DNA of 33,288 nt from an uncultured Pseudomonadales bacterium (lineage in GTDB: Bacteria > Patescibacteriota > Microgenomatia > UBA1400 > UBA12028): positions 5,022-38,309 of the forward strand of contig CAZWYZ010000002.1 of assembly GCA_964638785.1 (NCBI GenBank), given 5' to 3'. This document shows, one piece after another, positions 3-22,803 of the stretch. A program made the position numbers and the translations under genes. Under the pieces are notes generated by a model. The model searched no databases. It saw only the letters and a list, made by a program, of their open reading frames with translations, and was not told where the DNA came from. Numbering within the stretch: the stretch's first letter is position 1; every line of letters begins with the position of its first letter.

Positions 3-260
3 GTGTCATTCCGCGAGTTTTCGGTTTTCTTTCATGATGAGTTAAAGACGTTTTGGTCTGAAGTTACTTCAATTCCTCTCACTCAGTTCAATAAATCATA
101 CAGAAAAACAAACACTGGTAAGACGAAAAAAGCAGGTTATCAGGGCTGTGCCAGCATTTATTACTATGATGCAAAAATTGCGAAAGAGCTAACAGCCCTA
201 TATAATGCACTTTACCCCTGGGCATTGAAAGTCAATCTCCGTCCAGGACCAAATACATAG
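3..260 (+). CDS. C-terminal fragment of a LAGLIDADG-type homing-endonuclease-like protein (5' end outside the window)
   Basis: The ORF runs in from the window edge. The segment FWSEVTSIPLTQFNKSYRKT...GCASIYYYDAKIAKEL resembles LAGLIDADG_3-type repeats as I recall them; no search was done. The stop TAG at 258-260 overlaps the first 2 nt of the tRNA. Confidence 0.35.
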   Translation: MSFREFSVFFHDELKTFWSEVTSIPLTQFNKSYRKTNTGKTKKAGYQGCASIYYYDAKIAKELTALYNALYPWALKVNLRPGPNT

Positions 261-329
261 GGCTATGATGAAATGGTATCATTCCGGTCTCCAAAACCGT
301 ATTTCCAGGTTCGAATCCTGGTAGCCCTG
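259..329 (+). tRNA. trnW: tRNA-Trp (anticodon CCA)
   Basis: Manual cloverleaf. Acceptor AGGGCTA (259-265) pairs with TAGCCCT (322-328). D stem ATGA/TCAT. Anticodon stem CGGT/ACCG with loop CTCCAAA (anticodon 291-293). T arm CCAGG-TTCGAAT-CCTGG (305-321). Discriminator G329. CCA is not encoded. Confidence 0.85.
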
Positions 330-346
330 CAAACAGGCTCGAACCT
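307..346 (+). repeat. Junction J0: array-proximal att-like site made of the tRNA T-loop/acceptor 3' half plus the right box
   Basis: AGGTTCGA (307-314) is the exact reverse complement of TCGAACCT (339-346). An inner CCTG (317-320) pairs with CAGG (334-337). The layout matches the cassette junction repeats. Confidence 0.6.
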
Positions 347-420
347 AAATAATAGATTGCAATATCAATCTAATAGTGGTCGATTTTTGTCTCTATTCCT
401 TCCGTCCTTCTTTTGTTTGA

Positions 421-426
421 TATACT
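421..426 (+). promoter_or_regulatory. -10 hexamer TATACT, 6 nt upstream of ATG 433 (leaderless layout)
   Basis: tTGaTATACT followed by cttgtc and ATG; no SD. Confidence 0.5.
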
Positions 427-432
427 CTTGTC

Positions 433-876
433 ATGGCAAAGGAACAAATGGAAGACAAGTATCAAAGCGGAACATTAAAGGAATATAAACACTGGGTTCT
501 GACTGTTAGCTTCAGACAGACTACGTTAGGAAGTTACATTATCCTAGCCAAGCGACCGATGGAACGCATTACAGAACTATCTGATGATGAGCTTCTAGAA
601 TTACGGCTAGCCATGTCAGAAATGGAAAGAGTTCTACTACAAGCTGATGGTTTCAAGCCTGATCGGTTTAACTATCTTCAACTGGGAAACTCGCTTCATC
701 AACTTCATTTTCATGGTGTTCCAAGATATGCATCGCCTAGATTTTATGCTGAAAAGGAATGGATAGATCACCGATACGGAACAACCCCTCTTATTGTCTC
801 GAAGAGCGAAGAGTCTGAAGAGAGTCTTGTACGTCAAATACGAGATGCATTGAAGCCATTATTTGAAAGTATATAG
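433..876 (+). CDS. HIT (histidine triad) family hydrolase, cassette 1
   Basis: Contains the histidine-triad-like motif LHQLHFHGVPRY and has a HIT-sized fold length (147 aa). The stop TAG is the first 3 nt of TAGGTTC in J1. Confidence 0.7.
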   Translation: MAKEQMEDKYQSGTLKEYKHWVLTVSFRQTTLGSYIILAKRPMERITELSDDELLELRLAMSEMERVLLQADGFKPDRFNYLQLGNSLHQLHFHGVPRYASPRFYAEKEWIDHRYGTTPLIVSKSEESEESLVRQIRDALKPLFESI

Positions 877-919
877 GTTCTGACATCCTCCATGAGTCCC
901 TGCAAATAGGCTCGAACCT
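875..919 (+). repeat. Junction J1 (left box plus right box, short type)
   Basis: Sequence AGGTTCTGACATCCTCCATGAGTCCCTGCAAATAGGCTCGAACCT. Its 3' two thirds are nearly identical to the tRNA 3' end and flank (CCCTGCAAACAGGCTCGAACCT). Confidence 0.8.
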
Positions 920-992
920 TAATAATAGGTGAGCAAATCAATCCAAAATTAGTGATTTTTTACTCCATTCCTTCCGTCCTTGATTAGTTTGA

Positions 993-998
993 TATACT
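993..998 (+). promoter_or_regulatory. -10 hexamer TATACT, 7 nt upstream of ATG 1006
   Basis: tTGaTATACT followed by ttgaact and ATG; no SD. Confidence 0.5.
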
Positions 999-1005
999 TT
1001 GAACT

Positions 1006-1344
1006 ATGCGTTCAGAACTATTTCCACGTCAGCTTGACTCCGAAGGAAATCTCGGCCGGGCGAAAGATATATGTGTCGTTGCAGCAGAAAGAACATTTAA
1101 AGAGAGGTGGGGTAAAGATACGAATCCCATGATTGTGCAAATGATTATCTTTGGAGCACTTCAGGATCACTGGTATTATCGTTCTGATCAGTGGGTTGAT
1201 CAGCCATATTCTTTGCCTGCGATGTTTACACAGCCATATAGGGGAGACCCACAGTTTGCGTATCCGTGGTTGTATGGAGAAGGCACATTTCAAAGGGATG
1301 ATGAGTTAACAGAATTAATGGTTGAAGAACTCTCAACCAAATAG
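1006..1344 (+). CDS. hypothetical protein, cassette 2 (paralog of 7560..7904)
   Basis: Shares the blocks ERWGKDTNPMIVQM, DHWYYRSDQW and QPY with the 7560 ORF. The stop TAG lies in J2. Confidence 0.65.
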   Translation: MRSELFPRQLDSEGNLGRAKDICVVAAERTFKERWGKDTNPMIVQMIIFGALQDHWYYRSDQWVDQPYSLPAMFTQPYRGDPQFAYPWLYGEGTFQRDDELTELMVEELSTK

Positions 1345-1450
1345 GTTCTGACGTCCTCTACTAAGCCCTGCTTCACTGTTTCTGACACATTTCCCCTCAA
1401 GAAAAACAGGTTCGAGCCTTGGATAGACACAAGGAATTTGTTCGAACCTA
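1343..1450 (+). repeat. Junction J2 (108-nt composite type: left box, spacer, second T-arm-like module)
   Basis: A diverged left box AGGTTCTGACGTCCTCTACTAAGCCCTGC is followed by AGGTTCGAGCCTTGGATAGACACAAGGAATTTGTTCGAACCTA, which is identical to the same block in J6. Confidence 0.8.
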
Positions 1451-1453
1451 AGC

Positions 1454-1459
1454 TATAAT
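1454..1459 (+). promoter_or_regulatory. -10 hexamer TATAAT, 6 nt upstream of ATG 1466
   Basis: TATAAT followed by gagcga and ATG; no SD. Confidence 0.5.
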
Positions 1460-1465
1460 GAGCGA

Positions 1466-2203
1466 ATGGAAAAGGAAAAACTTTCCCCAGTAGAACAAAC
1501 GGCAATTCGTGCATCTGAAATCTTCAAAAAACTTCCTTTGGCATACAAGAGACTGATAATGTTTGCAGACTGGCTTATGGTGCTGGATGGAATGAAAGCA
1601 GCGACTGATTACGCATTCTTGGGTAACACTTGGGATGAGAATGAGTTCCAAATCTTCAAGCAAACGCTAGAGTCAGCAGGGATTAAAGTGTCGGATGTTC
1701 ACACGCGATATTTCAAAGATAATATTCCGTTTAGGAGTGGACACATCTATAACCCGCGAGCATTGGCAGCTCAGACTGCTCACTCTGAGATGATCCCTCC
1801 ATTCGATGTATCATCAACTTTTGATGAATATGAGCATATGCTAAAAGAAAGTGGAGTGCCCGACGGGATAATATACGGGAAACTCTATTCATTTCCCGAG
1901 TCTGCTATCAAAGATTATCTGAAAGGTAGTGGACATGAACTCACGGATACTAATAGAGTTGGTCTAGGGCAGGGCAATGAAAGTTACTGGGCATACTCAC
2001 CTTTACAGGATGATGTCATTGAGAGAGAGAAGGCTAGTGAGATTTTTCTTTCTAAAATTGAGCAGAATCCATTAATGAAACGAATTTATGAAAGTGAGGA
2101 GCTGAAAGCTTCTGACAAAGAATGGAGCCGAAGACTATCTAAGCTTACAAAACAAACTCTAATTCAGCGACTCGGAACAAAGCTTCGTTCACTAAGAAGA
2201 TAG
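1466..2203 (+). CDS. hypothetical protein (245 aa), cassette 3
   Basis: Long ORF with the promoter-ATG layout; no family recognised. The stop TAG lies in J3. Confidence 0.6.
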   Translation: MEKEKLSPVEQTAIRASEIFKKLPLAYKRLIMFADWLMVLDGMKAATDYAFLGNTWDENEFQIFKQTLESAGIKVSDVHTRYFKDNIPFRSGHIYNPRALAAQTAHSEMIPPFDVSSTFDEYEHMLKESGVPDGIIYGKLYSFPESAIKDYLKGSGHELTDTNRVGLGQGNESYWAYSPLQDDVIEREKASEIFLSKIEQNPLMKRIYESEELKASDKEWSRRLSKLTKQTLIQRLGTKLRSLRR

Positions 2204-2284
2204 GTTCGAACATCCTCCACGAGTCCCTGCAAATGGATTTTCCTCGAGTGAAAAAATAGGGGCACAAGGAAGGCTCGAACCTAA
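2202..2284 (+). repeat. Junction J3 (83-nt type with central CTCGAG)
   Basis: Perfect left box AGGTTCGAACATCCTCCACGAGTCCCTGCAAAT and right box GGCTCGAACCTAA. It differs from J4 at about 5 of 83 positions by eye. Confidence 0.85.
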
Positions 2285-2286
2285 TA

Positions 2287-2292
2287 TATACT
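2287..2292 (+). promoter_or_regulatory. -10 hexamer TATACT, 6 nt upstream of ATG 2299
   Basis: TATACT followed by ttagga and ATG. Confidence 0.5.
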
Positions 2293-2298
2293 TTAGGA

Positions 2299-2817
2299 AT
2301 GCTTACCCCTGCTCATATTGCTTCTTCATATCTCCTAAGTCAGGTTCCTTGTTTGTTCGGTCAACCTCTCAGTTCTTACGATGTCACCACTGTGATTTTA
2401 GCAGGGAACGTGCTTGATTTGGATTTCCTACTTGGATACTTGCGAAATAAAAAAGGTGACGATCACCATAATTTCGTCACACATACACCGTTATTTGTTT
2501 TTGTTGTTTGGACTATTTGTTTGCTACTCTTTCCACACATATTCAGTTCACTTTTATGGATGTTGATATTTGTTTCTGCAATGATACATCTGGGTCTAGA
2601 TGATATTGGATACTGGTTTTGCAGGTTCGAGTGGCAAAAGATTAGCAAGTATCCTCAAATAAACTGGCTATATCCTTTCGCTCCGTTTCAATCTAGAAAA
2701 TATCACGGGACAAATCGGTCATTGCTCAAAGACTATTTCCAAAAGGCAAGAGTGAATGTGTTTCTGGAGGTGACTTTGATATTTTCAGCAATTGTAGTAT
2801 TTTTGACTATTAGGTAG
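2299..2817 (+). CDS. membrane-bound metal-dependent hydrolase (YdjM/DUF457-like), cassette 4
   Basis: Several hydrophobic segments. His/Asp motifs occur in the YdjM order: N-terminal H, DLD, HHNFVTHT, HLGLDD. The stop TAG lies in J4. Confidence 0.5.
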   Translation: MLTPAHIASSYLLSQVPCLFGQPLSSYDVTTVILAGNVLDLDFLLGYLRNKKGDDHHNFVTHTPLFVFVVWTICLLLFPHIFSSLLWMLIFVSAMIHLGLDDIGYWFCRFEWQKISKYPQINWLYPFAPFQSRKYHGTNRSLLKDYFQKARVNVFLEVTLIFSAIVVFLTIR

Positions 2818-2898
2818 GTTCGAACATCCTCCACGAGTCCCTGCAAATGGATTTACCTCGAGTAGAAAAATAGGGACTCAAGGAAGGCTCGAACCTAA
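2816..2898 (+). repeat. Junction J4 (83-nt type)
   Basis: Perfect left and right boxes. The internal arms GAGTCCCT and AGGGACTC are complementary, and the centre is CCTCGAG. Confidence 0.85.
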
Positions 2899-2914
2899 AC
2901 CAAGATGCAATTGA

Positions 2915-2920
2915 TATAAT
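2915..2920 (+). promoter_or_regulatory. -10 hexamer TATAAT, 6 nt upstream of ATG 2927
   Basis: tTGaTATAAT followed by ctcccg and ATG. Confidence 0.5.
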
Positions 2921-2926
2921 CTCCCG

Positions 2927-3595
2927 ATGATTAGAAGTGAAAAGTGGCTCCCCGCAACAATTGCTCGCTTCACTGAGAATTATTTATTTAGTGGAAGTTA
3001 CCAGTGTACATTCGATGAAACAAAAGAGAATCAAATGATTCTGATCCCAGGGATGGGCGCATCAGTGTCTCAACTCTTCCGACTTGTTGATTCTTTACGA
3101 GCAGATGCTGATTTCCAATCCTACGGAATTACAGCCGTACAGCTGGGTTTGAGTCTGGGTGCTTTTAAAGATACCTTATCAAATCTCGAATCCAAACTGG
3201 AATCAAAGGTTTTTTCAAATACAGCAATAAAGCAGGTTGTTCTTTATGGGCATAGTCATGGTGGGCGTTTTGCTTGCCAACTCGCAACAGATTTGCAGAC
3301 AAATCATCCAGGCATAAGTTTGAAAGTTATCACTGGTGGAACTCCAGTAGTAGAAAGGCCTTCATCCTTTAAAAATTGGCTACTTTCACTTTCCTTTAGA
3401 GAATGGCCATCTATCGAGCAACCTCAGATAAACGAATATTATTCACTCTATTCCAACTCTGATGAAATTGTTGATGAAGATGATGCCAGAAGAGGATCAA
3501 AAGCAACTTTAGTAGAACTACAAGACTTTTCTCATAGTGATTTTATAAACCCAGAGAAAATAATGCCTGTATTAAAAGATCTTTGCATCAAATAG
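2927..3595 (+). CDS. alpha/beta-hydrolase fold esterase/lipase-like protein, cassette 5
   Basis: Contains a nucleophile elbow GHSHGG (GxSxG) in a 222-aa protein. The stop TAG lies in J5. Confidence 0.6.
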   Translation: MIRSEKWLPATIARFTENYLFSGSYQCTFDETKENQMILIPGMGASVSQLFRLVDSLRADADFQSYGITAVQLGLSLGAFKDTLSNLESKLESKVFSNTAIKQVVLYGHSHGGRFACQLATDLQTNHPGISLKVITGGTPVVERPSSFKNWLLSLSFREWPSIEQPQINEYYSLYSNSDEIVDEDDARRGSKATLVELQDFSHSDFINPEKIMPVLKDLCIK

Positions 3596-3652
3596 GTTCG
3601 AACATCCTCCACGAGTCCCCGCAAATTTTAATAGATTGGTATATCAATCTAA
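3594..3652 (+). repeat. Junction J5 (left box plus AGATTG-N6-CAATCT mini-hairpin; no right box)
   Basis: Left box AGGTTCGAACATCCTCCACGAGTCCCCGCAAAT is followed by AATAGATTGGTATATCAATCTAA. The same hairpin follows the tRNA at 354-371. Confidence 0.8.
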
Positions 3653-3706
3653 AAATACATCTAAGTCACACACATCCCTTCTGCACCTCTTTTTTCTACT
3701 TAGCGT

Positions 3707-3712
3707 TATAAT
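3707..3712 (+). promoter_or_regulatory. -10 hexamer TATAAT, 6 nt upstream of ATG 3719
   Basis: TATAAT followed by tgctga and ATG. Confidence 0.5.
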
Positions 3713-3718
3713 TGCTGA

Positions 3719-4237
3719 ATGCCAAAAGAAATCTACATATTACGTCACGCTGAGAAAGACGATCTAGGAACATTAACTGATAAAGGGAGACAACAAGCCA
3801 CTGAGCTTCGAGACAGACTTCCACAGTTTTCAAACGTAATTTCTTCTGAATCCAAAAGAGCCCAGGAAACTGCAACTCTTGTGACTGGCAAAGAACCAAA
3901 AGTAGATCCAAGAGCAGGGTTTTATATGGCTCACCCTGAAAAGAGTGATGAGTTAAACAGGATAGCTAAAGAAAAAGGAATACCATTTCTAGAAGCGGTT
4001 GTATTGCTAAACGATTCAGAAGTTCTAGCTGGTATAGATGATAAAGCAGGTCAGTTAAATGACTTGGTAAAAGAATTACTTGAAACTTTACCAGATGGAG
4101 CAAAAGCTATTATTATTTCTCATGACTTAAGTATCAGCCCAGCGATGCAGAAAAGGGGAGTTCCTCTTGAATCAATCCCATTCTTAAGCGGATACATCAT
4201 TGATGAAGAGGGGAAGATCTCCACTTTCACCCCATAG
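3719..4237 (+). CDS. histidine phosphatase (phosphoglycerate-mutase-like) family protein, cassette 6
   Basis: N-terminal IYILRHAEK (RHG-type motif) and a later ISHD histidine. It has its own TAG, 27 nt upstream of J6. Confidence 0.7.
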   Translation: MPKEIYILRHAEKDDLGTLTDKGRQQATELRDRLPQFSNVISSESKRAQETATLVTGKEPKVDPRAGFYMAHPEKSDELNRIAKEKGIPFLEAVVLLNDSEVLAGIDDKAGQLNDLVKELLETLPDGAKAIIISHDLSISPAMQKRGVPLESIPFLSGYIIDEEGKISTFTP

Positions 4238-4264
4238 TAAGAGAAGTATTTTTCATTGTTAAAT

Positions 4265-4372
4265 AGGTTCGAACATCCTCCACGAGTCCCTGCTTCACAG
4301 TTTTTGACTTTTCTTCCCTCAAGCAAAAGAGGTTCGAGCCTTGGATAGACACAAGGAATTTGTTCGAACCTA
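4265..4372 (+). repeat. Junction J6 (108-nt composite type, sister of J2)
   Basis: The left box is near consensus (AGGTTCGAACATCCTCCACGAGTCCCTGC, then TTCAC in place of AAAT). It is followed by the 43-nt block AGGTTCGAGCCTTGGATAGACACAAGGAATTTGTTCGAACCTA, identical to J2. Confidence 0.85.
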
Positions 4373-4375
4373 CGG

Positions 4376-4381
4376 TATAAT
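4376..4381 (+). promoter_or_regulatory. -10 hexamer TATAAT, 6 nt upstream of ATG 4388
   Basis: CTACGGTATAAT followed by ctatac and ATG. Confidence 0.5.
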
Positions 4382-4387
4382 CTATAC

Positions 4388-4939
4388 ATGAGCACAAGCT
4401 TTTTGTTTATCCTTGAAAAAAACTTATCCTCCATACAAAAAGAGCAAATCGGGAAATTCAATGAAGAATCATTTGGAGATGTTTCACTGGAAGAAAAAGA
4501 AGAGAACTTCATTGCAAAACCATTTGCAAGACTTATCGCCTATCTAGATGGGATTCCAGTTGGGACACTGCAACTATTCAAACGAGAGAACAGGTTTGCT
4601 AGTAAGAGTTTTATGCTTGGTGGTATCGGAGGTGTTTGCGTGACAGAAAAGCATCGGAAGAAGGGAATAGGCAAGGAGCTTATACAGAAAGCATTAGAAA
4701 TACTTCGCAATGAGCACTGTGATGTAGCTTGTTTGAATGTGGATTCAAAGAAACTTGCATTTAAGCTCTATGAAAAGGTTGGTTTTGTACTTATGGATAG
4801 AGACGCTTCATTTGAAAACAGTAAAGGAGAAATCATTTACGAGCCCGGTACGATGTTTGCCCCTGTACTTTCCCAGAGCATTTTTGCTCTTATTATGCAA
4901 AGTAGTGAGACTTTTCACTACGGTGTTGGGTATTGGTAA
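4388..4939 (+). CDS. GNAT family N-acetyltransferase, cassette 7
   Basis: Acetyl-CoA motif A: VCVTEKHRKKGIGKELIQKA. The C-terminal YEKVGF is typical of GNATs. Confidence 0.75.
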   Translation: MSTSFLFILEKNLSSIQKEQIGKFNEESFGDVSLEEKEENFIAKPFARLIAYLDGIPVGTLQLFKRENRFASKSFMLGGIGGVCVTEKHRKKGIGKELIQKALEILRNEHCDVACLNVDSKKLAFKLYEKVGFVLMDRDASFENSKGEIIYEPGTMFAPVLSQSIFALIMQSSETFHYGVGYW

Positions 4940-4942
4940 GAT

Positions 4943-4975
4943 AGGTTCGAACATCTTCCACGAATCCATGCAAAT
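4943..4975 (+). repeat. Junction J7 (left box only, 4 substitutions)
   Basis: Sequence AGGTTCGAACATCTTCCACGAATCCATGCAAAT, 3 nt after the TAA stop. Confidence 0.75.
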
Positions 4976-5010
4976 AAGCTTCACTCTAATACTTTGTTTT
5001 GATTCTACGG

Positions 5011-5016
5011 TATAAT
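5011..5016 (+). promoter_or_regulatory. -10 hexamer TATAAT, 6 nt upstream of ATG 5023
   Basis: CTACGGTATAAT followed by tttgca and ATG. The 12-nt block is the same as upstream of 4388. Confidence 0.5.
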
Positions 5017-5022
5017 TTTGCA

Positions 5023-5619
5023 ATGAATAAAGACTCTGACCAACGACTGCTTCACGATGTTGATTCTCAGGCTGAAAAAGAATTAGAGCAAATACGGAAA
5101 GCTGTACCTGAATCTGAAATTCTTAAGATTGGCGAAAATCCAGAACAGTACACTATAAAAGTCTCCTTGCCACACATGTGTAGTATTACTGGAATTCTGG
5201 TCTACCCTACTTCAATCTCCAATGAGAGTAATTTGTATGTCAATATGTTCAATTTACCTGAAGAATTTCAGCAAAAAGGAATAGGGCAAAGACTTTTACG
5301 GTCGCTTGTCGTTTGTGCAAAAACATATGGAGCGACTACGCTTAGCGGAAACGTAACAAGTAAGTCAGCTCTCAAAACTCGTGCTAGAGTCTTTGGACAA
5401 GATAAACTTACTTATTACTCTCGGACTGGATTAGGGAAAAAGGGCGATGAAATAGATAGATCCTATGATGAAATACTCACAAAGCTACCAAATTCGATCA
5501 TTGAAGATGGTGAAGAGGTTGATTTCAGTTGCTTTGTAGATGTGGATTTAAATGGAGTAGATACCCTAGGCTGGGAATTGCCTATTCCTAAAAAAGATGA
5601 TGAGGAGAAGCAGACGTAA
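5023..5619 (+). CDS. GNAT-like protein (weak), cassette 8
   Basis: Start moved from the TTG at 4999 to the ATG at 5023 to fit the -10 layout. QQKGIGQRLLRSL resembles GNAT motif A; otherwise unrecognised. Confidence 0.4.
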   Translation: MNKDSDQRLLHDVDSQAEKELEQIRKAVPESEILKIGENPEQYTIKVSLPHMCSITGILVYPTSISNESNLYVNMFNLPEEFQQKGIGQRLLRSLVVCAKTYGATTLSGNVTSKSALKTRARVFGQDKLTYYSRTGLGKKGDEIDRSYDEILTKLPNSIIEDGEEVDFSCFVDVDLNGVDTLGWELPIPKKDDEEKQT

Positions 5620-5623
5620 GCAA

Positions 5624-5659
5624 GGAGGTTCAAACATCCTCCACGAGTCTTTGCATCAG
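5624..5659 (+). repeat. Junction J8 (left box variant with a full T-arm-like stem)
   Basis: GGAGG-TTCAAACAT-CCTCC is followed by ACGAGTCTTTGCATCAG. The 5-bp stem is 5624-5628 with 5638-5642. Confidence 0.7.
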
Positions 5660-5688
5660 TTTTCATTTGCAATGCTAGTTGAGAGAAT

Positions 5689-6261
5689 CTAGAGTATTCC
5701 TTTTTCTGTCAGATCCTCAAGTAAATGAGGATACTTCAACTCTATATAAGCTTTTGCTTTATTGTGCGCAGGTTTCTGCTCAAGTCCCAGTTCAATTGAA
5801 AAGCGACGTATGTCTTCTTTTGCAGTTTCTAAATTTGTATCTGCAGAATATTCGATTTCACAGACGCTATACCCAAAATCGGTGATGTCTACATCAACCG
5901 TGAATGAATCTCTTTGAAATGTATATCGAGTTGTTTTCATTTGAATGGAAGGTAAGAGATTTGATTTAATCCAGTTGGACAAGACTGCATCCTTTGGCAC
6001 ATCAAGAAAAGCCTTTATTTCTTCTTCAGTTGTAAGTTCTAAATATACCTCCAACTGCTTGCCTCGTTCTTCAGGCTTTCTATATTTTAGTTCAAACGAA
6101 CCATTTCGCTCGCGAACCCAAGTGTCATTCCTAAGATACCTGAAATCTATTGTGTCAAAGTATGTTTCCACTAGTTCTTTTACTTTTACCTGTAGAAGTT
6201 TTTGCTGAAGCGAGGGGAGAAGCATCTGAGAAAAAGGGAATTGCTGTTCAACTTCTATCAT
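5689..6261 (-). CDS. CYTH domain protein (thiamine-triphosphatase-like), cassette 9, inverted orientation
   Basis: MIEVEQQF (EXEXK-type start), YFDT, DVDITDFGYSVCEIEY and KAKAYIELKYPHLL parallel the mammalian ThTPase/CYTH motifs. Start set at M49 of the tracked ORF so that it does not read through J9. Confidence 0.75.
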   Translation of the reverse strand: MIEVEQQFPFSQMLLPSLQQKLLQVKVKELVETYFDTIDFRYLRNDTWVRERNGSFELKYRKPEERGKQLEVYLELTTEEEIKAFLDVPKDAVLSNWIKSNLLPSIQMKTTRYTFQRDSFTVDVDITDFGYSVCEIEYSADTNLETAKEDIRRFSIELGLEQKPAHNKAKAYIELKYPHLLEDLTEKGIL

Positions 6262-6267
6262 ATCGAT

Positions 6268-6273
6268 AGTATA
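6268..6273 (-). promoter_or_regulatory. -10 hexamer TATACT (minus strand), 6 nt upstream of ATG 6261
   Basis: The minus strand reads TATACT, atcgat, ATG. Confidence 0.5.
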
Positions 6274-6289
6274 GCAATCTTCAGGAAGC

Positions 6290-6342
6290 AGGTTGGAACA
6301 TCCTTCACGAGTCCTCGTATCAACTTTTAAGCTCGAAAAATA
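6290..6342 (+). repeat. Junction J9 (diverged left box plus degenerate right box)
   Basis: AGGTTGGAACATCCTTCACGAGTCCTCG is followed by AAGCTCGAAAAATA. It is in plus orientation although the preceding gene is on the minus strand. Confidence 0.65.
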
Positions 6343-6374
6343 CTTCGAAAATGGCTTTTTATAGCGACTGACAT

Positions 6375-6380
6375 TACAAT
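6375..6380 (+). promoter_or_regulatory. -10 hexamer TACAAT, 7 nt upstream of ATG 6388
   Basis: TACAAT followed by tgtctgt and ATG. Confidence 0.45.
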
Positions 6381-6387
6381 TGTCTGT

Positions 6388-7317
6388 ATGGATAAAGACA
6401 TGCAAGGTGTGGAATTTCCTTCAGAAGCACATCGAAATCTCTCCGATCATTTAGATGAAATAGAAGTTCATGAAGAGAATCTTCAAGAAGTACAAGAATT
6501 GACTGATCTTTTTTTTGACCAGTTAATTGAAGTTAGTTACACTGAGTCAAACACAAGAAGTGGGACGATTGCCTGGGATCAAGATAAATTGGATATGGTT
6601 GAGTATCTAGCGAATATAGCTGGTGAAGTTTGGGAAATAGGTGGGCCAACTGAAGAATATACCATGATTGATCAGGCTCGAATTAAGAACACGTTTAGAG
6701 TAGTGAATATTCCACCAGCACCTGGACTCAATACATATAGAGAAATTCCAACACAGGTTTCTGTCCTTGCTGATGGTTCTCAATTGCCCATTGGCGATAA
6801 GATTTTAGCAGGTCTACTAATAAGTAATTTCAGCGGAGAGAGAAATGCACTAATACAAGAGGTGTCTAGAGTCTTAAAAACAGATGGCCTCCTTGTTTGG
6901 CAAGGTGGGAAGCCAGAGGATTTAGCCATGATGTTGACGAAGGGATTTGTCCTACAGTCTTTCAAGCTGACTATAGTCGATCAAAGTGAAAAGCCAGACT
7001 CAAAAAAAACAGGTCAACAGTTGGTATGGTCTGGAGTTTTTAAAAAGACAGACAAAGAAATTTCCAGTTCAGACGTTGTCCCACTGTTCGTAAACATTAT
7101 AAAGAATTCAAAAAAGGAAGAAATCGCTTTCGAAATTCCTAACTTTGATCCCAGTACGGGACGATCTCTAACAACTGATGCTGAAAGGGTAGAGGTAATT
7201 AAAAATTTGTATTGGACCATTGGGGTGAAAGTCCCTGATGAAGATGCAGATGGTAAGTTGCTTACTCCAGAAGAAAAGATGAAGTATTTAAAGGAAAAGT
7301 ATTCCACATCTACATAA
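6388..7317 (+). CDS. hypothetical protein with a possible class I methyltransferase-like core, cassette 10
   Basis: VWEIGGP ... LPIGDKILAGLLISN ... LIQEVSRVLKTDGLLVWQGG resembles SAM-MTase motifs I, II and post-III; the match is weak. Confidence 0.4.
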   Translation: MDKDMQGVEFPSEAHRNLSDHLDEIEVHEENLQEVQELTDLFFDQLIEVSYTESNTRSGTIAWDQDKLDMVEYLANIAGEVWEIGGPTEEYTMIDQARIKNTFRVVNIPPAPGLNTYREIPTQVSVLADGSQLPIGDKILAGLLISNFSGERNALIQEVSRVLKTDGLLVWQGGKPEDLAMMLTKGFVLQSFKLTIVDQSEKPDSKKTGQQLVWSGVFKKTDKEISSSDVVPLFVNIIKNSKKEEIAFEIPNFDPSTGRSLTTDAERVEVIKNLYWTIGVKVPDEDADGKLLTPEEKMKYLKEKYSTST

Positions 7318-7332
7318 TTTAATCATTGCTGA

Positions 7333-7515
7333 GTGGAGGGGGAGGTTCCCGCTGCTGTATTGTTTATGGTTGTCAAAGATGGAGCAGAGATTCGCGTCAT
7401 CCCTGAGTGGGAAGTAAGCTACTGGCAAGCTTTCTATAGCGCCCCAGATACAGTTACATCAGTAGCTTTAAAAGATTTTTATAAAAAAGCGAACACTCAA
7501 AAAAACAAGTTCTAA
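7333..7515 (+). CDS. small hypothetical ORF (60 aa, GTG start); doubtful
   Basis: Only ORF-level evidence. It is preceded by a GGAGGG-rich stretch and has no -10/ATG layout. Its stop TAA lies inside the J10 remnant. Confidence 0.2.
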   Translation: MEGEVPAAVLFMVVKDGAEIRVIPEWEVSYWQAFYSAPDTVTSVALKDFYKKANTQKNKF

Positions 7516-7538
7516 TTTCTGCTCCTGAGCCCAGAAAC
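7509..7538 (+). repeat. Junction J10: degenerate copy of the genuine tRNA-Trp 3' end (tRNA-type, not cassette-type)
   Basis: GTTCTAAT-ttctgc-TCCTGAGCCCAGAAAC compares with the tRNA GTTCGAATCCTGGTAGCCCTGCAAAC. It matches the tRNA version (TCCTG..AGCCC..AAAC) better than the cassette consensus. Confidence 0.5.
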
Positions 7539-7547
7539 CACTTTTGA

Positions 7548-7553
7548 TAAAAT
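7548..7553 (+). promoter_or_regulatory. -10 hexamer TAAAAT with TG extension, 6 nt upstream of ATG 7560
   Basis: tTGaTAAAAT followed by atccaa and ATG. Confidence 0.45.
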
Positions 7554-7559
7554 ATCCAA

Positions 7560-7904
7560 ATGTTTAATGAACAAAGACCTCGATTGATTGTTGATGGACA
7601 CCTAGAAGAAATACTTGGGACGTGTTCCGATGAAGCAGAGAAAACTTTTAGGAATAGATGGGGTCAAGATACAAATCCTCGTATTGTTCAGATGGTTCAT
7701 CAAGGACAGCCCATCGATCACTGGTACTACAGATCTGATCAGTGGATTTCGCAGCCATATGCTTGGCCTGCAATCTTTCTCCAACCGTACGTGGGTTCCA
7801 CCACTGAAATTGGAGCGATTAAATATGGTGAGAGGAGTTACATTTATGGCGATAATGAAAAATTGTCAACAGAAATTCTAATAGAAGAATTAAGATCAAA
7901 GTAG
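7560..7904 (+). CDS. hypothetical protein, cassette 11 (paralog of 1006..1344)
   Basis: Contains the blocks NRWGQDTNPRIVQM, DHWYYRSDQW and QPY. The stop TAG lies in J11. Confidence 0.65.
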   Translation: MFNEQRPRLIVDGHLEEILGTCSDEAEKTFRNRWGQDTNPRIVQMVHQGQPIDHWYYRSDQWISQPYAWPAIFLQPYVGSTTEIGAIKYGERSYIYGDNEKLSTEILIEELRSK

Positions 7905-7935
7905 GAAAGCACATCTTTCACGAGTCCCTGTAAAT
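7903..7935 (+). repeat. Junction J11 (left box, 5' third degenerate)
   Basis: AGGAAAGCACATCTTTCACGAGTCCCTGTAAAT, followed by GGATCATCCACGAGTGG, which resembles the J3/J4 centre. Confidence 0.65.
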
Positions 7936-7986
7936 GGATCATCCACGAGTGGTAAAAGAGAACAGAATGAAAATACGAGTCTACGA

Positions 7987-7992
7987 TATAAT
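7987..7992 (+). promoter_or_regulatory. -10 hexamer TATAAT, 6 nt upstream of ATG 7999
   Basis: TATAAT followed by cagtgg and ATG. Confidence 0.5.
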
Positions 7993-7998
7993 CAGTGG

Positions 7999-8688
7999 AT
8001 GGAAATAAATACATCTCTTCTATCAGATCCGTTCTATAAGAAGTCAGAATCAGAAAATAACGGTTTAGCGCTCATTGATAACTCAGTCCTGTCGATCTAT
8101 TGCCCAGGTATCAGTACAGGAGGGTTTGCAGAGATTAGTATGGCACTTGCTGAGCCACGAAGGCGAATTGTGGCAACAACCTTAGATGAAAAAGGGATTT
8201 TAGAAACGCAGAAATTGTTGGAAAAGTATACGGTTCAGTCACAGATTACTCTAAAAATTGAGGATGTGTCAAAACCACTCCCATATGAGAACGAGTACTT
8301 CGATTTCATCTACGCTCGTTTAGTCTTACACTATTTAGCAAATACTGAGTTACAAAATGCTCTTCAGGAACTGTACAGAATTTTAAAAACAGGGAATACG
8401 CTATTTGTTGTTGTTCGATCATTTGATTGGGAAAGCGAAGTCCCCGAAAGCACTCATGATGTTGAAACAGGAATGACCAGTTACCCGGAATATGATGATG
8501 CGGGGAAGGTACGTAAGTATGTTTCTCGTAATTTGCACTCGGAAGAAACTATAAAGGATCATTTGGTTAAAGCAGGATTCAAAATAAAATCACTTAGAAC
8601 ATTTGAAGAGACAATCTACGGAGGTTACCTTCGCATCAGACCAAATGAGAAGCCATCATCTCTCATTGAGGTGGTAGCTGAAAAATAG
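7999..8688 (+). CDS. class I SAM-dependent methyltransferase, cassette 12
   Basis: Rossmann-type motifs: IYCPGISTGG, an acidic residue after beta2, FDFIYARLVLHYL, and LQELYRILKTGNTLFVVV. The stop TAG lies in J12. Confidence 0.75.
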   Translation: MEINTSLLSDPFYKKSESENNGLALIDNSVLSIYCPGISTGGFAEISMALAEPRRRIVATTLDEKGILETQKLLEKYTVQSQITLKIEDVSKPLPYENEYFDFIYARLVLHYLANTELQNALQELYRILKTGNTLFVVVRSFDWESEVPESTHDVETGMTSYPEYDDAGKVRKYVSRNLHSEETIKDHLVKAGFKIKSLRTFEETIYGGYLRIRPNEKPSSLIEVVAEK

Positions 8689-8715
8689 ATCGTGACAACC
8701 CTCACCAGCACCTGC
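8687..8715 (+). repeat. Junction J12 (most degenerate left box)
   Basis: AGATCGTGACAACCCTCACCAGCACCTGC keeps the spacing and about half the consensus positions. It is followed by AGTTTGATATACTTTGAA, which is identical to the block upstream of cassette 2. Confidence 0.45.
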
Positions 8716-8733
8716 TTATTCAAATCAGTTTGA

Positions 8734-8739
8734 TATACT
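8734..8739 (+). promoter_or_regulatory. -10 hexamer TATACT, 6 nt upstream of ATG 8746
   Basis: tTGaTATACT followed by ttgaaa and ATG. Confidence 0.5.
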
Positions 8740-8745
8740 TTGAAA

Positions 8746-9327
8746 ATGCCATCAATCTATCTTCTTCGACACTGTGAATACGAAAACCCACGAAATATTT
8801 TGCCGGGACGATTACCACTAGAGTTATCTGAATCCGGAAAAATTCGAGCAGGACAACTTGCCAGTACTTTTGAAGGAAAGAATATTTCGCGTATCTACAG
8901 CAGTGCTGTCGAGCGATGCAAACAGACAGCAGAGATAGTATCAAAAGGAACTATCCCTGTGCTATACGATCAAAGACTATTGGAAACACTTTCTGCATAC
9001 CAGGGATTCTGGGGGGAAAATAAAACGGAGGATGGATTTCATTTCTTTATTCATCGATCAGAATTGGGGGGAGAAAGTTTGGTGGATATTCAGGTCAGGA
9101 TGAAATCTTTTTGGGAGGAAATTACTCAAGAACTAAAAGATAATATCATTATCTGCAGTCATGGTGATCCATTGCAGGTATTGTATTCAACAATTCATGG
9201 GATGAACTTGGTCGATGATAATGACATTGAAGAAAATATTCCAGGTTGGCTTGAAAAGGGTGAGTTTTTTGAAATCTCCTGGCATGAAGGAAAAATTGTT
9301 TCGACCTCTTCGCCTAAAACGGCATAA
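8746..9327 (+). CDS. histidine phosphatase family protein, cassette 13
   Basis: IYLLRHCE (RHG-type motif) and ICSHGDPL. Start moved from the TTG at 8740 to the ATG at 8746 to fit the -10 layout. Confidence 0.7.
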   Translation: MPSIYLLRHCEYENPRNILPGRLPLELSESGKIRAGQLASTFEGKNISRIYSSAVERCKQTAEIVSKGTIPVLYDQRLLETLSAYQGFWGENKTEDGFHFFIHRSELGGESLVDIQVRMKSFWEEITQELKDNIIICSHGDPLQVLYSTIHGMNLVDDNDIEENIPGWLEKGEFFEISWHEGKIVSTSSPKTA

Positions 9328-9347
9328 AACCGACTACATACACGAAT

Positions 9348-9971
9348 CTACTGCTCTGGTTTTTCATCAGTCTCAGCATCCTGAATATCCAAATGTTTCC
9401 GACAAAAGTCTAGATATACTTTCTTATTTTCTCCCGGCAGAATGCGAAGGTCATAGCTGCTTTGGGAGACGAGCACGATTGCATTTTGTTTTAGACCTTC
9501 GATCAAGGCATCTACACGCACTGTATAGACAACAGGATCTCTTCTCGGTGTTAGTTTCAGGAAGTTAATAACCTCGGGTCTTGCAAGGGATCCATTCGCC
9601 CCTCCATCGAGCACGAAGGTCGATAATTCATGAGGTGAATAGTCTGAACTAATGCTCATACCCATATTTTCTTGCCAGGTATTCCGTGTTCCACCTCTAT
9701 ACCATGTTAAATCTGGTTTGAGTTCGTTGAGCTTTGTTAAGATATCTATCTGGCCATTTTCGAGATGCCGCATCTCACTCACCACGCCGTCAATGTGATA
9801 ATGTCGCTGTATTGCGTAGAGCAGCCATTTTTCCGCTCCATTCTTCTGTGCGTAGGAAAGTGCATACTCTTTCAACTGATCTACGAGGTTTTCATACTCT
9901 TCCTCTGAAACTTCGAACCTGCTTGGTGTAGATTCCTGCCTGCTCATGTCTGTCGTTTGATTCTCCGGCAT
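9348..9971 (-). CDS. hypothetical protein (207 aa), possibly the last, inverted cassette
   Basis: Long ORF, low GC like the array, with the leaderless -10 layout. No family recognised. Confidence 0.55.
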   Translation of the reverse strand: MPENQTTDMSRQESTPSRFEVSEEEYENLVDQLKEYALSYAQKNGAEKWLLYAIQRHYHIDGVVSEMRHLENGQIDILTKLNELKPDLTWYRGGTRNTWQENMGMSISSDYSPHELSTFVLDGGANGSLARPEVINFLKLTPRRDPVVYTVRVDALIEGLKQNAIVLVSQSSYDLRILPGENKKVYLDFCRKHLDIQDAETDEKPEQ

Positions 9972-9977
9972 AGTTAC

Positions 9978-9983
9978 AGTGTA
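9978..9983 (-). promoter_or_regulatory. -10 hexamer TACACT (minus strand), 6 nt upstream of ATG 9971
   Basis: The minus strand reads TACACT, gtaact, ATG. Confidence 0.4.
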
Positions 9984-10088
9984 TCAGATCTTTTTGAACA
10001 TGATTGATCAGGACAATATGTGTAAAATTAAGCTGACTAATACGCATATTTGCAGGGTGAGTCCTAGGATATAAAAAGGCCTATAATA

Positions 10089-13250: not shown

Positions 13251-14750
13251 CTATTTTTTTAGGGAAAGGTGACGTGCAATCTCACCGACACGTGCAGGAC
13301 CTTCATAGATCATGCCAGTTATCATCTGCACAAGATCTGCACCCAGTTCAATTTTTGTCGCTGCATCCTCTGGAGTAAAGATGCCGCCTGTGCCAATAAT
13401 GGTGAATCGTTGTTTAAAAAGCTTCTTTGTCAGTTTGATATAGGTGTTGGAGCGATGCCACGTTGGCTTCCCACTTAAGTTTCCATGGGATTTTTCCCAT
13501 AGTTCTCGATCAGATGGATGCACGTCAGGGTTCTTTTTATCCTTCGTTAAGTTCCCAAAAATAACTCCTGCTATTGTGTGCCCATCAGCAGTACGCAGGA
13601 GGGCAACCGTTTCTTTCTCGGAGAGATCAATCGGCATCTTCAAATAGATTGGTCTTTTTATTTTCAATGTGTCCACCGCCGTCAATAACGCTTCCAGCTC
13701 TTTTGGAGTCTTGAATGAAAATGGATTAGTTACATTTGGGCAACTGATATTGAGTTCGTAGTAGGCATGTTTGCCTTTACTTTTCTCAAAGAGTCGAAAT
13801 GATTCCATGATGTCAATGATCTGTAGTTTTTGTGATGCAAATAAAGTGTTTGTGCTCCCAATACTAATTCCTGTTGGAATATCGAACTGAAGTGATGCAA
13901 GCTTTGCACACATTTTTGCAGCGCCAACATTCTTAAATCCTTTATTCACCAGTAATGCTTTCGATCGTGGGAACCGACCAAGTCGCGGTGGTGTGTTCCC
14001 ATCGTATGCTTGGTATGTAATCGTTCCAATTGTTTCAAAGCCAAACCCGAGTGAGGAGACAATTCCTGTGAGTGAGCCGGTATAGTCAAAACCAGCCGAC
14101 AGACCAACGCGAGTAGGAAAGGTAATTCCATCAATCGTCACGCCCTTTGCAGGAGATTTTGGGAAAAATGCCAGCGCAGTGAGTCTCTTCGTCAGTCCGA
14201 AACTGCCTAAAAGACTCCCAGTTTGTGTGAGTCGGTTATGCACAAACTCTGCATCAAAAAGGAAAAAGATTGGTTTGATGATCAGAACATACACACTATG
14301 GAAGGTGCGTGTAAACCAGTTGGATCCTGGCATAAGCTCCTTTCTTGACCAACAGAGTGCAAGTGAGGAGACAAAAATGAGGAGGCAACAGAGCGCAGAA
14401 ACAAGGCAATACAAACACCATGCCTGTAATAACACTCCCATCATGAATACCAAGTACAAGGAAAACAAAAAGCCACAGAATGCAACCGCACGCACGAGAT
14501 CTTCATGGTCTTCTTGTAGAAATGCGATTGCCCCAATGATGAGGATGACTGTGTAGTAGAAGATTCCAATCGCTGAGAGTGGAACTGGTCCAATCCGTGA
14601 CAGTGGGCTATTTAATACGGTTCCACAATCAAAGGGAGGGCGACAGGCTGGTTGGTTGCCACGAAGCTCTGTGTATGTGAGATACGACGCATCGACAATA
14701 CCGATGAATGCAACACACACAATGAGGAGCCCAAAGATTTTTTTTCGCAT
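13251..14750 (-). CDS. pyrD: fusion protein: N-terminal VKOR (vitamin K epoxide reductase family) 4-TM domain plus dihydroorotate dehydrogenase (PyrD-like)
   Basis: VKOR hallmarks: loop C-x6-C (ACRPPFDCG), a conserved Ser region, and CLYC (CXXC) at the start of TM4. DHODH hallmarks: LFDAEFVHN, GLSAGFDYTG, PRLGRF, NKGFKNVG, ELNISCPN, GNLSGKP, IIGTGGI and the YEGP tail. Confidence 0.8.
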   Translation of the reverse strand: MRKKIFGLLIVCVAFIGIVDASYLTYTELRGNQPACRPPFDCGTVLNSPLSRIGPVPLSAIGIFYYTVILIIGAIAFLQEDHEDLVRAVAFCGFLFSLYLVFMMGVLLQAWCLYCLVSALCCLLIFVSSLALCWSRKELMPGSNWFTRTFHSVYVLIIKPIFFLFDAEFVHNRLTQTGSLLGSFGLTKRLTALAFFPKSPAKGVTIDGITFPTRVGLSAGFDYTGSLTGIVSSLGFGFETIGTITYQAYDGNTPPRLGRFPRSKALLVNKGFKNVGAAKMCAKLASLQFDIPTGISIGSTNTLFASQKLQIIDIMESFRLFEKSKGKHAYYELNISCPNVTNPFSFKTPKELEALLTAVDTLKIKRPIYLKMPIDLSEKETVALLRTADGHTIAGVIFGNLTKDKKNPDVHPSDRELWEKSHGNLSGKPTWHRSNTYIKLTKKLFKQRFTIIGTGGIFTPEDAATKIELGADLVQMITGMIYEGPARVGEIARHLSLKK

Positions 14751-22585: not shown

Positions 22586-22803
22586 AGCGATTTTCATTTT
22601 TACGAGCGTGTGGTCCCTTCAATTGTAGAGAAGGGAAAACGAGGAGAGGGGTCGTGATAGCAAACGACAATCGGACAGTCAAAGTAAATATCTCTGACAA
22701 GTATCTGCGGAAACCCTCCGGTGCGACTTTGCATCGTCAGAAAAGAATCAAAACTTCATGGTAACGTGGAGCACCAAAGTTCTTGTTCACAAAAGTAAAT
22801 CGC
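22586..22803 (+). ncRNA. candidate glmS ribozyme-like leader element (unverified)
   Basis: TATAGT -10 at 22564-22569, then A/GCG at 22586. Hairpin TCCCTTC/GAAGGGA (22614-22636) abuts ACGAGG (22639-22644). GGAGAGGG can pair with CCCTCC (22714-22719), which is preceded by GCGGAAA. These resemble the GACGAGGAUGGAGG...GGCGGAUGCCUCC core of the ribozyme as recalled from B. subtilis. Confidence 0.3.

Follow-up and report, generated by a model that had tools for sequence, protein, structure and literature searches.

A hypervariable array of single-gene cassettes adjoining a tRNA-Trp gene, possibly seeded at the tRNA 3′ end, in Patescibacteria

Sedentary chromosomal integrons, such as the Vibrio superintegron with its Vibrio cholerae repeats (VCR), carry long arrays of co-oriented cassettes with a single open reading frame (ORF) each, separated by near-identical repeats in which the stop codon often lies. 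In other bacteria, tandem islands are seeded at the end of a small RNA gene. Dehalococcoides reportedly has such islands at ssrA, its transfer-messenger RNA (tmRNA) gene, and in streptococci cis-mobilizable elements (CIMEs) are said to accrete with integrative and conjugative or integrative and mobilizable elements (ICEs/IMEs). In Prochlorococcus, tycheposons form tandem islands seeded at the tRNA 3′ end (bioRxiv 10.1101/2020.12.28.424599). In this study, we analyzed a 33,288-nt stretch of contig CAZWYZ010000002.1 (hereafter the window), in which a tRNA-Trp gene is followed by an array of small one-ORF units punctuated by a 29-nt repeat (hereafter the box), and which resembles chromosomal integrons in all of the respects just named. 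Arrays of this anatomy adjoin tRNA-Trp in many lineages, their cassettes vary among relatives, and insertions and deletions between strains end at the box or at a CCTGC core. The window comes from a bacterium of the candidate phyla radiation (CPR), or Patescibacteria. These organisms have tiny genomes with few recognized mobile elements, and their acquisition of accessory genes is poorly understood.

The array is headed, as a preliminary description of this DNA had claimed, by a tRNA-Trp(CCA) gene at 259-330 on the plus strand, on which ARAGORN and Rfam (60.8 bits) agree. From 330 to ~10076 we count 14 small ORFs (112-309 aa), of which 12 share the strand of the tRNA; 13 and 11 had been given before. 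The units uniformly hold one ORF and span 0.4-1.2 kb each, and the GC content of the array is ~0.39 compared with 0.42-0.48 (mostly 0.43-0.47) elsewhere in the window. Ten clear direct copies of the box, GGTTCGAACATCCTCCACGAGTCCCTGCA, start at 876, 1344, 2203, 2817, 3595, 4266, 4944, 5627, 6291 and 7904, all on the plus strand. Seven copies are found at three or fewer mismatches, while shuffled sequences give 0. Remnants comprise a degenerate copy (8689-8717), an inverted one (10043-10072) and two possible collapsed copies with an internal deletion. The repeat family described earlier is therefore real, but instead of 12 equal copies it consists of ten clear ones plus these remnants. No copy was found in the window from 10.1 to 33.3 kb. 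In nine of the ten clear copies TA stands directly 5′ of the box, so that TA and the first G of the box make a TAG that is the stop codon of the upstream ORF. Conservation stops abruptly at either edge of the box, and within every locus studied the strong copies all lie on one strand. The box score drops with distance from the tRNA (rho -0.60, p 0.065), and two further loci, L024 and L004, show the same trend (contigs used for comparison are referred to by such L numbers).

The relation between the box and the tRNA was examined by local alignment. The T-loop-to-3′-end segment of the tRNA (308-334, GGTTCGAATCCTGGTAGCCCTGCAAAC), which stands where a box would and is proposed to be the entry site, aligns with the box at a score of 21 against 11.7 +/- 2.1 for shuffles, 7 of 2000 of which reached it. 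The alignment is interrupted by gaps of 2, 3 and 1 nt and is made up of GGTTCGAA, a generic T-loop sequence that fits other tRNAs too, and CCCTGCAAA, the tRNA-Trp-specific part. The resemblance to the tRNA 3′ half noted in the preliminary description is thus genuine, but modest and gapped. Stronger evidence is provided by the flanks, in line with the earlier observation that the match at the first box, J1, runs past the tRNA end. The ~100-nt stretches behind the tRNA (325-426) and behind J1 (898-998) share 77-87% identity, up to the next ATG, which places the tRNA 3′ end where a box would otherwise be. The repeats share with the local tRNA only the T-loop motif and a CCCTGC(A/C) terminus and differ from it by indels. 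In four of seven lineages the bases that follow CCCTGC in the boxes match the local tRNA (CAAA versus CCA). The tRNA-Trp genes of the array loci are very different in sequence, and all terminate in CCCTGC or CCTGCCA. In L038 an uninterrupted sequence resembling a tRNA-Trp 3′ half (GGTTCGAATCCTGTCGCCCCTGCAAAC, 5708-5736) directly follows a tRNA-Asp gene and opens the array; by eye, 25 of its 29 positions agree with the window tRNA 3′ end. Similar orphan sites are located at the array starts of L006 (~4400, minus strand) and L032 (~7695-7720), and at none of these three sites is a tRNA-Trp 5′ half detectable. The sequences point to two kinds of site, a tRNA-like one at the array start and a distinct, longer box on the cassettes, with a common (C)CCTGC(A/C) end.

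Two observations concern the tRNA genes and their surroundings. Over its whole length the window tRNA-Trp is unlike those of L001 (436-507) and L004 (222-293), which are similar to each other, and the ORF upstream of the window tRNA is 60% identical to its L004 counterpart; the tRNA-Trp gene itself may have been replaced in the window. Furthermore, short GC-rich palindromes such as CCTGCCTGCCGGCAGGCAGG and TGCAGGCGGGCCTGCA abut CCTGC cores downstream of tRNA-Trp (L027 2540-2560 and 2605-2625; L024, in reverse complement, just after the tRNA; L001 400-436). These may be footprints of hairpin intermediates or tiny palindromic insertions.

To determine how far the box extends beyond the window, GTDB species representatives, metagenome contigs and viral contigs were scanned with a degenerate box pattern. 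Three contigs matched in the GTDB scan; two of them are metagenome-assembled genomes (MAGs) of relatives, and their hits lie in an array adjoining tRNA-Trp. The match in L002, a GC-rich Thermoanaerobaculaceae contig, was rejected as a chance match. In the metagenome scan the box was found in 36 contigs with a GC content of 0.27-0.51, and there was no match in viral contigs, phages or plasmids. A co-oriented tRNA-Trp lies upstream in the window and in at least ten other loci, namely L001, L004, L015, L016, L024, L027, L029, L031, L036 and L039. Several boxes per locus are common, and each of them follows a small co-oriented ORF; L010 has six in 3.4 kb. On the 326-kb and 504-kb sibling contigs, exact-pattern hits are confined to the array that adjoins tRNA-Trp. 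A further contig of 656 kb (Ga0209099_1000001) carries three separate box loci (L006, L025 and L037) whose adjacency is not established.

The arrays of close relatives can be compared directly since their right flank is shared. Genes for a GNAT and a fused DHODH-VKOR protein follow the array in the window, in L041 and in L003+L001, and L041 also shares Crp, LDH, ArsR and a P-type ATPase; the array end at ~10076 is the point where homology to L041 resumes. To the left of this flank, the ~10 kb and 14 ORFs of the window are replaced in L041 by ~3.6 kb with a box, Nramp, HIT, 3-dmu-9_3-mt and a 198-aa ORF, and in L003+L001 by ~4.7 kb with GIY-YIG, a 124-aa ORF, RibD_C, a 266-aa ORF, 3-dmu-9_3-mt and an inverted 256-aa ORF. 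The first of these in L001 (80-322, minus strand) is an 81-aa stand-alone GIY-YIG nuclease-domain protein next to tRNA-Trp; it may be plain cargo, yet no other nuclease-like gene was seen at an array entry. The HIT cassette adjoins the tRNA in the window and comes after Nramp in L041, and the 3-dmu-9_3-mt cassette has different neighbors in L041 and in L003+L001. At the protein level the HIT of the window and that of L041 are 91.8% identical while flank proteins are 55-88% identical, and 3-dmu-9_3-mt reaches 85.8% against 72-74% for flank genes, a margin that is not large considering that LDH reaches 87.6%. That the common cassettes are closer than most core flank genes would fit exchange between lineages. 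Single-ORF, co-oriented cassettes whose content differs among relatives are found here as they are in integrons. An invariant gene order, which the preliminary description had named as evidence against cassettes, is not what we find, since the relatives' arrays consist mostly of different genes and strain indels end at the box or core.

Strain pairs provide the finest resolution. L016 and L027 are 98.6% identical, and a 720-nt one-ORF unit present only in L016 ends exactly at the 3′ end of a box; L016 also has a deletion between the CCCCTGCC of the tRNA and a downstream TCCCTGCC, i.e., between two CCCTGCC motifs. L024 and L031 are 100% identical over 3.4 kb and differ by a 90-nt mini-unit, composed of a -10 hexamer and a degenerate box end, placed right after ...CCTG|CAGTAA. 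In L008 and L013 the sequence downstream of a box is 99.3% identical and the upstream sequence unrelated, with the breakpoint at the box, and L006 has a 4-kb insertion with three boxes relative to L032. The contigs of further relatives stop inside a box or no more than ~270 nt from the array edge (L041 1-30 and the ends of L046 and L047, the closest extra contigs found through the DHODH-VKOR flank), which suggests that repeats or strain heterogeneity at the locus in the sampled populations broke the assemblies. Homologues of the 112-aa cassette family occur without flanking boxes in L042, L044 and L045, indicating that the cargo consists of ordinary genes.

Each unit had been credited with its own promoter, and this is confirmed. 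A TANNNT hexamer, in the form TATAAT or TATACT and often with TG in front, starts 12-13 nt before the ATG in 13 of the 14 array ORFs (at -12 in eleven), and at these positions in only three of 16 flank genes; in the remaining array ORF, an inverted CYTH gene, TATACT lies a few bases before the ATG. No Shine-Dalgarno sequence precedes any of the 14 array ORFs, compared with seven of the 16 flank genes. A -10 hexamer placed 6 nt before the ATG together with the lack of a Shine-Dalgarno sequence points to leaderless transcription of single genes, and the array units look like self-contained transcription units with leaderless mRNA.

We searched for an enzyme that could move these units. Pfam scans of all large ORFs in the window and the 8 kb upstream of the sibling L001 tRNA revealed no recombinase, which agrees with the earlier remark that no integrase is in view. 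Across ~45 loci there was no tyrosine or serine recombinase, IS200-type TnpA or recurrent mobility gene. A Pfam batch of 122 ORFs gave no recurrent recombinase family, although only recurrent families were listed and singletons could be missed, and phmmer with XerD, IntI1, Hin and IS608 TnpA against the 1252 ORFs of all loci returned nothing credible. One phmmer match in L039 (E = 0.003) was rejected since it lies in a non-genic frame. On the source contig of 38,309 nt, the intI search covered the 33,288 nt of the window. As no recombinase was found in ~45 loci, we can only infer that site-specific recombination takes place at the tRNA-Trp 3′ end.

Our preferred explanation, which we consider somewhat more probable than its competitors taken together, is a hypervariable chromosomal cassette array in Patescibacteria that is seeded at the tRNA-Trp 3′ end by site-specific recombination, with a crossover in or next to CCCTGC and a recombinase encoded elsewhere. 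A unit would be a minimal expression module made of a -10 hexamer, one ORF and the non-palindromic box, usually starting at the G of a TAG stop, and units would be gained, lost, inverted and reshuffled when the DNA recombines at the boxes. Most probably, a cassette that has been excised or is coming in would recombine, conservatively and site-specifically, between its box and the tRNA-Trp 3′ end, which have the core (C)CCTGC(A/C) in common; the left part of the box would stay with its cassette and the tRNA would remain intact. New units would enter beside the tRNA and older ones would decay distally, and catalysis would fall to a recombinase whose gene lies at another place in the genome or on a helper element. 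Such a model fits the two kinds of site, the agreement of the bases after CCCTGC with the local tRNA in four of seven lineages, the breakpoints at the core and the trend of box decay. A bolder version, to which we give rather less credence though it is a serious possibility, is a previously unrecognized gene-capture system of Patescibacteria, in which an asymmetric 29-nt site recombines with the tRNA-Trp 3′ end by means of an unlinked recombinase, possibly guided or of a new kind, and leaderless one-gene cassettes are exchanged between lineages.

Several findings weigh against site-specific capture at the tRNA, beginning with the lack of a recombinase in the loci searched. Dyad symmetry of the simple tyrosine-recombinase/Xer core type is missing from the box consensus. 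The tRNA 3′ end as entry site, proposed in the preliminary description, is supported by flank homology, recurrent linkage and the orphan sites, but the likeness of box and tRNA does not carry over to L001, where the box is unlike the local tRNA beyond CCCTGC. Promoter modules of ~100 nt are common to unrelated ORFs, which would not be predicted if promoter, ORF and box moved as one piece. An inverted partner of the left arm of the box is, outside the window lineage, no commoner than in the control. Some breakpoints fall at GGYTCGAAC motifs, as in the deletion of the box after HIT in L041, and others just upstream of the -10 hexamer; such scattered breakpoints also fit homologous or illegitimate recombination between short repeats.

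These points lead to the alternative that the box is primarily an RNA element of the 3′ untranslated region, a protein-binding site or part of a transcription stop/start arrangement, and that units turn over as a side effect, by homologous or microhomology recombination between the numerous near-identical boxes and promoter modules, aided by natural DNA uptake and with no dedicated recombinase. We regard this as unlikely, yet as the most serious competitor. Beyond the missing recombinase, the shared promoter modules and the breakpoints at GGYTCGAAC repeats and -10 hexamers, the position of the box is invariably the transcribed 3′ end of a co-oriented ORF, and low-GC lineages have an intrinsic-terminator hairpin immediately behind it, together with the next -10 hexamer. 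The collapsed boxes resemble deletions between short direct repeats, and the near-identity of boxes within an array is as expected from gene conversion. What such turnover leaves unexplained is the siting at tRNA-Trp in at least seven lineages with very different tRNA-Trp sequences, the tRNA-Trp 3′ terminus at the box end and the uninterrupted 3′ halves at array starts. There is, moreover, no conserved RNA pairing partner, 29 nt is at the lower limit for efficient RecA recombination, and the sharp box edges are those expected of a recognition site. It is considerably less probable that the array is the eroded residue of successive integrative elements at tRNA-Trp (tycheposon-, ICE/IME- or prophage-like) that lost their integrases and left attachment-site scars. 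Cases of tandem integration at a tRNA, in which partial tRNA repeats and degenerate remnants occur, are well documented (bioRxiv 10.1101/2020.12.28.424599), and L004 has multi-gene intervals between its boxes (P450, NUDIX and purA; a BrnT/CopG toxin-antitoxin pair; a DUF4143 ATPase). However, random erosion would not yield uniform one-ORF units in which the -10 hexamer is precisely placed and the stop codon runs into the box, phmmer found no integrase fragments in any locus, and the internal repeats, rather than copying the local tRNA 3′ half, form a distinct box that is conserved across lineages irrespective of it.

A canonical integron array without integrase, i.e., a cluster of attC sites lacking integron-integrases (CALIN), with unusual-looking attC sites is in our judgment very improbable. 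The single-ORF, co-oriented array, the stop codons within the repeat and the cargo (GNATs, methyltransferases and small hydrolases, with a toxin-antitoxin pair in L004) are typical of chromosomal integrons, and imperfect hairpins of 42-111 nt whose ends are complementary form at junctions J0, J4 and J6. A near-palindromic right box, GG(C/T)TCGAACC, which follows many boxes and the tRNA in the window lineage, can pair with the GGTTCGA of the left part. The preliminary description had taken the repeats as a whole for attC-like imperfect hairpins, but single-strand folding exceeds shuffles only at J0 (z -5.2), J4 (z -4.2) and J6 (z -3.6), with a weak effect at J3 and none at the others. We have rejected attC-like folding as a general feature, given that a minority of junctions fold and the hairpin partner is missing from most junctions and from all other lineages. 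The attC cores R″ (RYYYAAC) and R′ (GTTRRRY) are absent, as had been remarked earlier; TTCGAAC and GTTCGAA each fail at two positions. No intI was found by Pfam in the window or upstream of the L001 tRNA, or by phmmer, and the cassettes are not promoterless units under a cassette promoter (Pc), with 13 of 14 ORFs carrying their own hexamer. Furthermore, attC sites are conserved in structure, whereas here it is the sequence that is conserved. Equally hard to credit is a dispersed repeat of the repetitive extragenic palindromic (REP) or miniature inverted-repeat transposable element (MITE) type that is dense here by chance. The box is a short conserved intergenic repeat and has three loci on the 656-kb contig. 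The genome-wide scatter of copies typical of such elements, which the preliminary description had held would argue against a cassette array, is not seen in the other 23 kb of the window or on the 326-kb and 504-kb sibling contigs, and the box is non-palindromic, has a single orientation and keeps a fixed position relative to stop codons.

The units can be followed from the tRNA outward. A first right box (AGGCTCGAACC, 335-345, plus strand), a near-palindrome specific to the window lineage that pairs with the GGTTCGA of the tRNA T-loop, follows the tRNA, with further copies at ~908-918, 1408-1417, 1440-1449, 2271-2281, 2885-2895, 4330-4339 and 4362-4371. All units are on the plus strand unless stated. 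Cassette 1 (414-904) has a -10 sequence TATACT at 421-426, an ORF of the HIT family (433-876) and box J1 (876-904). Cassette 2 (988-1372) carries a 112-aa ORF of unknown function (1006-1344) and box J2 (1344-1372), and cassette 3 (1453-2231) a 245-aa ORF, likewise of unknown function (1466-2203), and box J3 (2203-2231). A YdjM-like membrane protein (2299-2817) is encoded in cassette 4 (2287-2845), which ends in box J4 (2817-2845); the J4 junction (2815-2901) forms a long imperfect hairpin. Next come cassette 5 (2914-3623) with a lipase-3-like alpha/beta hydrolase (2927-3595) and box J5 (3595-3623), cassette 6 (3706-4294) with a histidine phosphatase (3719-4237) and box J6 (4266-4294), cassette 7 (4375-4972) with a GNAT acetyltransferase (4388-4939) and box J7 (4944-4972), and cassette 8 (5010-5655) with a weakly GNAT-like 198-aa ORF (5023-5619) and box J8 (5627-5655). 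The inverted cassette (5656-6290, minus strand) holds the CYTH-domain ORF (5689 to ~6264) with its own TATACT before the ATG, and a possible collapsed inverted box, CATTGCAAAT, lies at ~5660-5680 on the minus strand after its stop.

Box J9 (6291-6319) is degenerate (23 bits). Cassette 10 (6375-7360) encodes a faintly methyltransferase-like protein of 309 aa (6388-7317), after which a possible collapsed box, GGTTC-CCGCTGC, was read by eye near 7346. Cassette 11 (7547-7932) ends in box J10 (7904-7932, 18 bits), and its 114-aa ORF (7560-7904) is a paralogue of the 112-aa ORF of cassette 2 (48.6% aa identity). A SAM methyltransferase (7999-8688) and the degenerate box at 8689-8717 form cassette 12 (7986-8717), and cassette 13 (8733-9327) has a second histidine phosphatase (8746-9327) with no recognizable box after it. 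The last unit (9348-10076) is inverted, with a 207-aa ORF of unknown function (9348-9971, minus strand) and its own -10 sequence, preceded on the minus strand by the inverted box remnant at 10043-10072. Pfam thus names HIT, YdjM-like membrane, alpha/beta hydrolase, histidine phosphatase (two), GNAT, CYTH and SAM methyltransferase proteins; one other ORF is weakly GNAT-like and the rest have no family match.

The box has further properties of its own. Its variable positions are mostly 1, 7, 10, 13, 19 and 22, i.e., every third base, and its minus-strand translation LQGLVEDVRT(Y) is near-invariant over ~60 distinct copies from the window and L001-L040, with Leu codons switching between CTN and TTR and Arg codons between AGA and CGA. 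A protein-coding role was rejected, as no long ORF contains LQGLVEDVRT and the period-3 pattern is partly imposed by the search pattern. A canonical sigma-70 promoter and an intrinsic terminator were also rejected, consensus scans being not enriched over shuffles. Rfam found only tRNAs and a glmS ribozyme; neither the boxes nor the orphan tRNA-like sites gave a match. Low-GC lineages have a second box type, GGTTCCGA(G/T)..CGTC(C/T)CATCG(CCCCTGCAAAC), present in L038 (6157, 6535 and 7076) and also in L037, L006 and L026, at times fused ~32 nt upstream of the canonical box.

The remaining 23 kb of the window hold ordinary chromosomal genes, including those for DHODH-VKOR, Crp, LDH, a copper ATPase cluster and glmS with its ribozyme. 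On the other side of the array, the ORF at 3-260 has no Pfam or PDB match and its sole homologue is itself. The best named homologues of the DHODH-VKOR protein belong to Candidatus Woesebacteria, Cerribacteria, Pacebacteria and 'Patescibacteria group' bacteria, which indicates that the window comes from a CPR bacterium; the label 'Pseudomonadales' given to the sibling MAGs in the European Nucleotide Archive (ENA) is doubtful. The DHODH with an N-terminal VKOR fusion (13251-14750, minus strand) has the same architecture as nearly 2000 database proteins, of which the few with a named source are from Patescibacteria. A glmS ribozyme/riboswitch (Rfam RF00234, 54 bits) lies at 22594-22796 on the plus strand, upstream of glmS (22944-24695). 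The P-type cation ATPase is split into a 759-aa ORF (26277-28556, minus strand) and an overlapping 168-aa ORF in another frame with the C-terminal domain (25823-26329, minus strand), which is a frameshift, a pseudogene or a sequencing error.

It is important to understand what such arrays would mean. If the preferred explanation is true, a compact cassette array present in many lineages, whose site is defined by sequence, whose chromosomal anchor is fixed and whose leaderless promoters are built in, offers a concrete route of gene flux in a large part of the bacterial tree. It would also mean that the problem solved by integrons has been solved a second time, by an independent construction. 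The invariant 29-nt box provides a handle for mining cassette pools in metagenomes, by PCR or in silico, and for a recombinase hunt by phylogenetic profiling, and an enzyme that recognizes an asymmetric site of ~29 nt could be of interest for genome engineering.

Among described systems, chromosomal integrons share more with this locus than the layout of the array. Their cargo also consists of small enzymes, GNATs, methyltransferases, toxin-antitoxin pairs and unknowns, its content varies between conserved flanks, and the site carried by the cassettes is not the one at the head of the array, which is attI in integrons and the tRNA 3′ end here. Unlike integrons, the locus has no adjacent integrase, is anchored at a tRNA, and its units have their own -10 hexamer and a leaderless start, whereas integron cassettes rely on Pc; and while attC is defined by structure and by RYYYAAC/GTTRRRY, the box is a conserved, non-palindromic 29-nt sequence across GC contents of 0.27-0.51. 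Islands seeded at tRNA or tmRNA genes would, on the preferred explanation, share insertion at a tRNA 3′ end, older units pushed outward, tRNA-3′-related repeats between units, and integrase-less units that could move in trans. They differ in having one to few multi-kb units per site, with current or recent integrase and replication genes and repeats that copy the local tRNA; here there are at least ten one-gene units, no integrase remnants or mobility or replication genes were found in them, and the box differs from the local tRNA half by indels. The pdif modules and integrative mobile elements exploiting Xer (IMEX) are likewise small, integrase-less and bounded by copies of a ~28-nt site, with the recombinase encoded elsewhere (host Xer in their case). 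However, in dif-like sites of 28 bp a 6-bp spacer separates two inverted 11-bp arms, and pdif orientation alternates, whereas the box is asymmetric, all copies are direct and no GC-skew switch occurs at the array. REP sequences and bacterial interspersed mosaic elements (BIMEs), with their REP-associated tyrosine transposases (RAYT), also place short conserved repeats just after stop codons, but REPs are palindromic and genome-wide while the boxes are non-palindromic, on one strand and confined to the array. The preliminary description knew of no such system, and our literature search, though incomplete in coverage, found no description of arrays of this kind either. The array could be described as integron-like or as tRNA-seeded cassette accretion; a dedicated enzyme that recognizes its site in an unusual way, if found, could place it in a category of its own.

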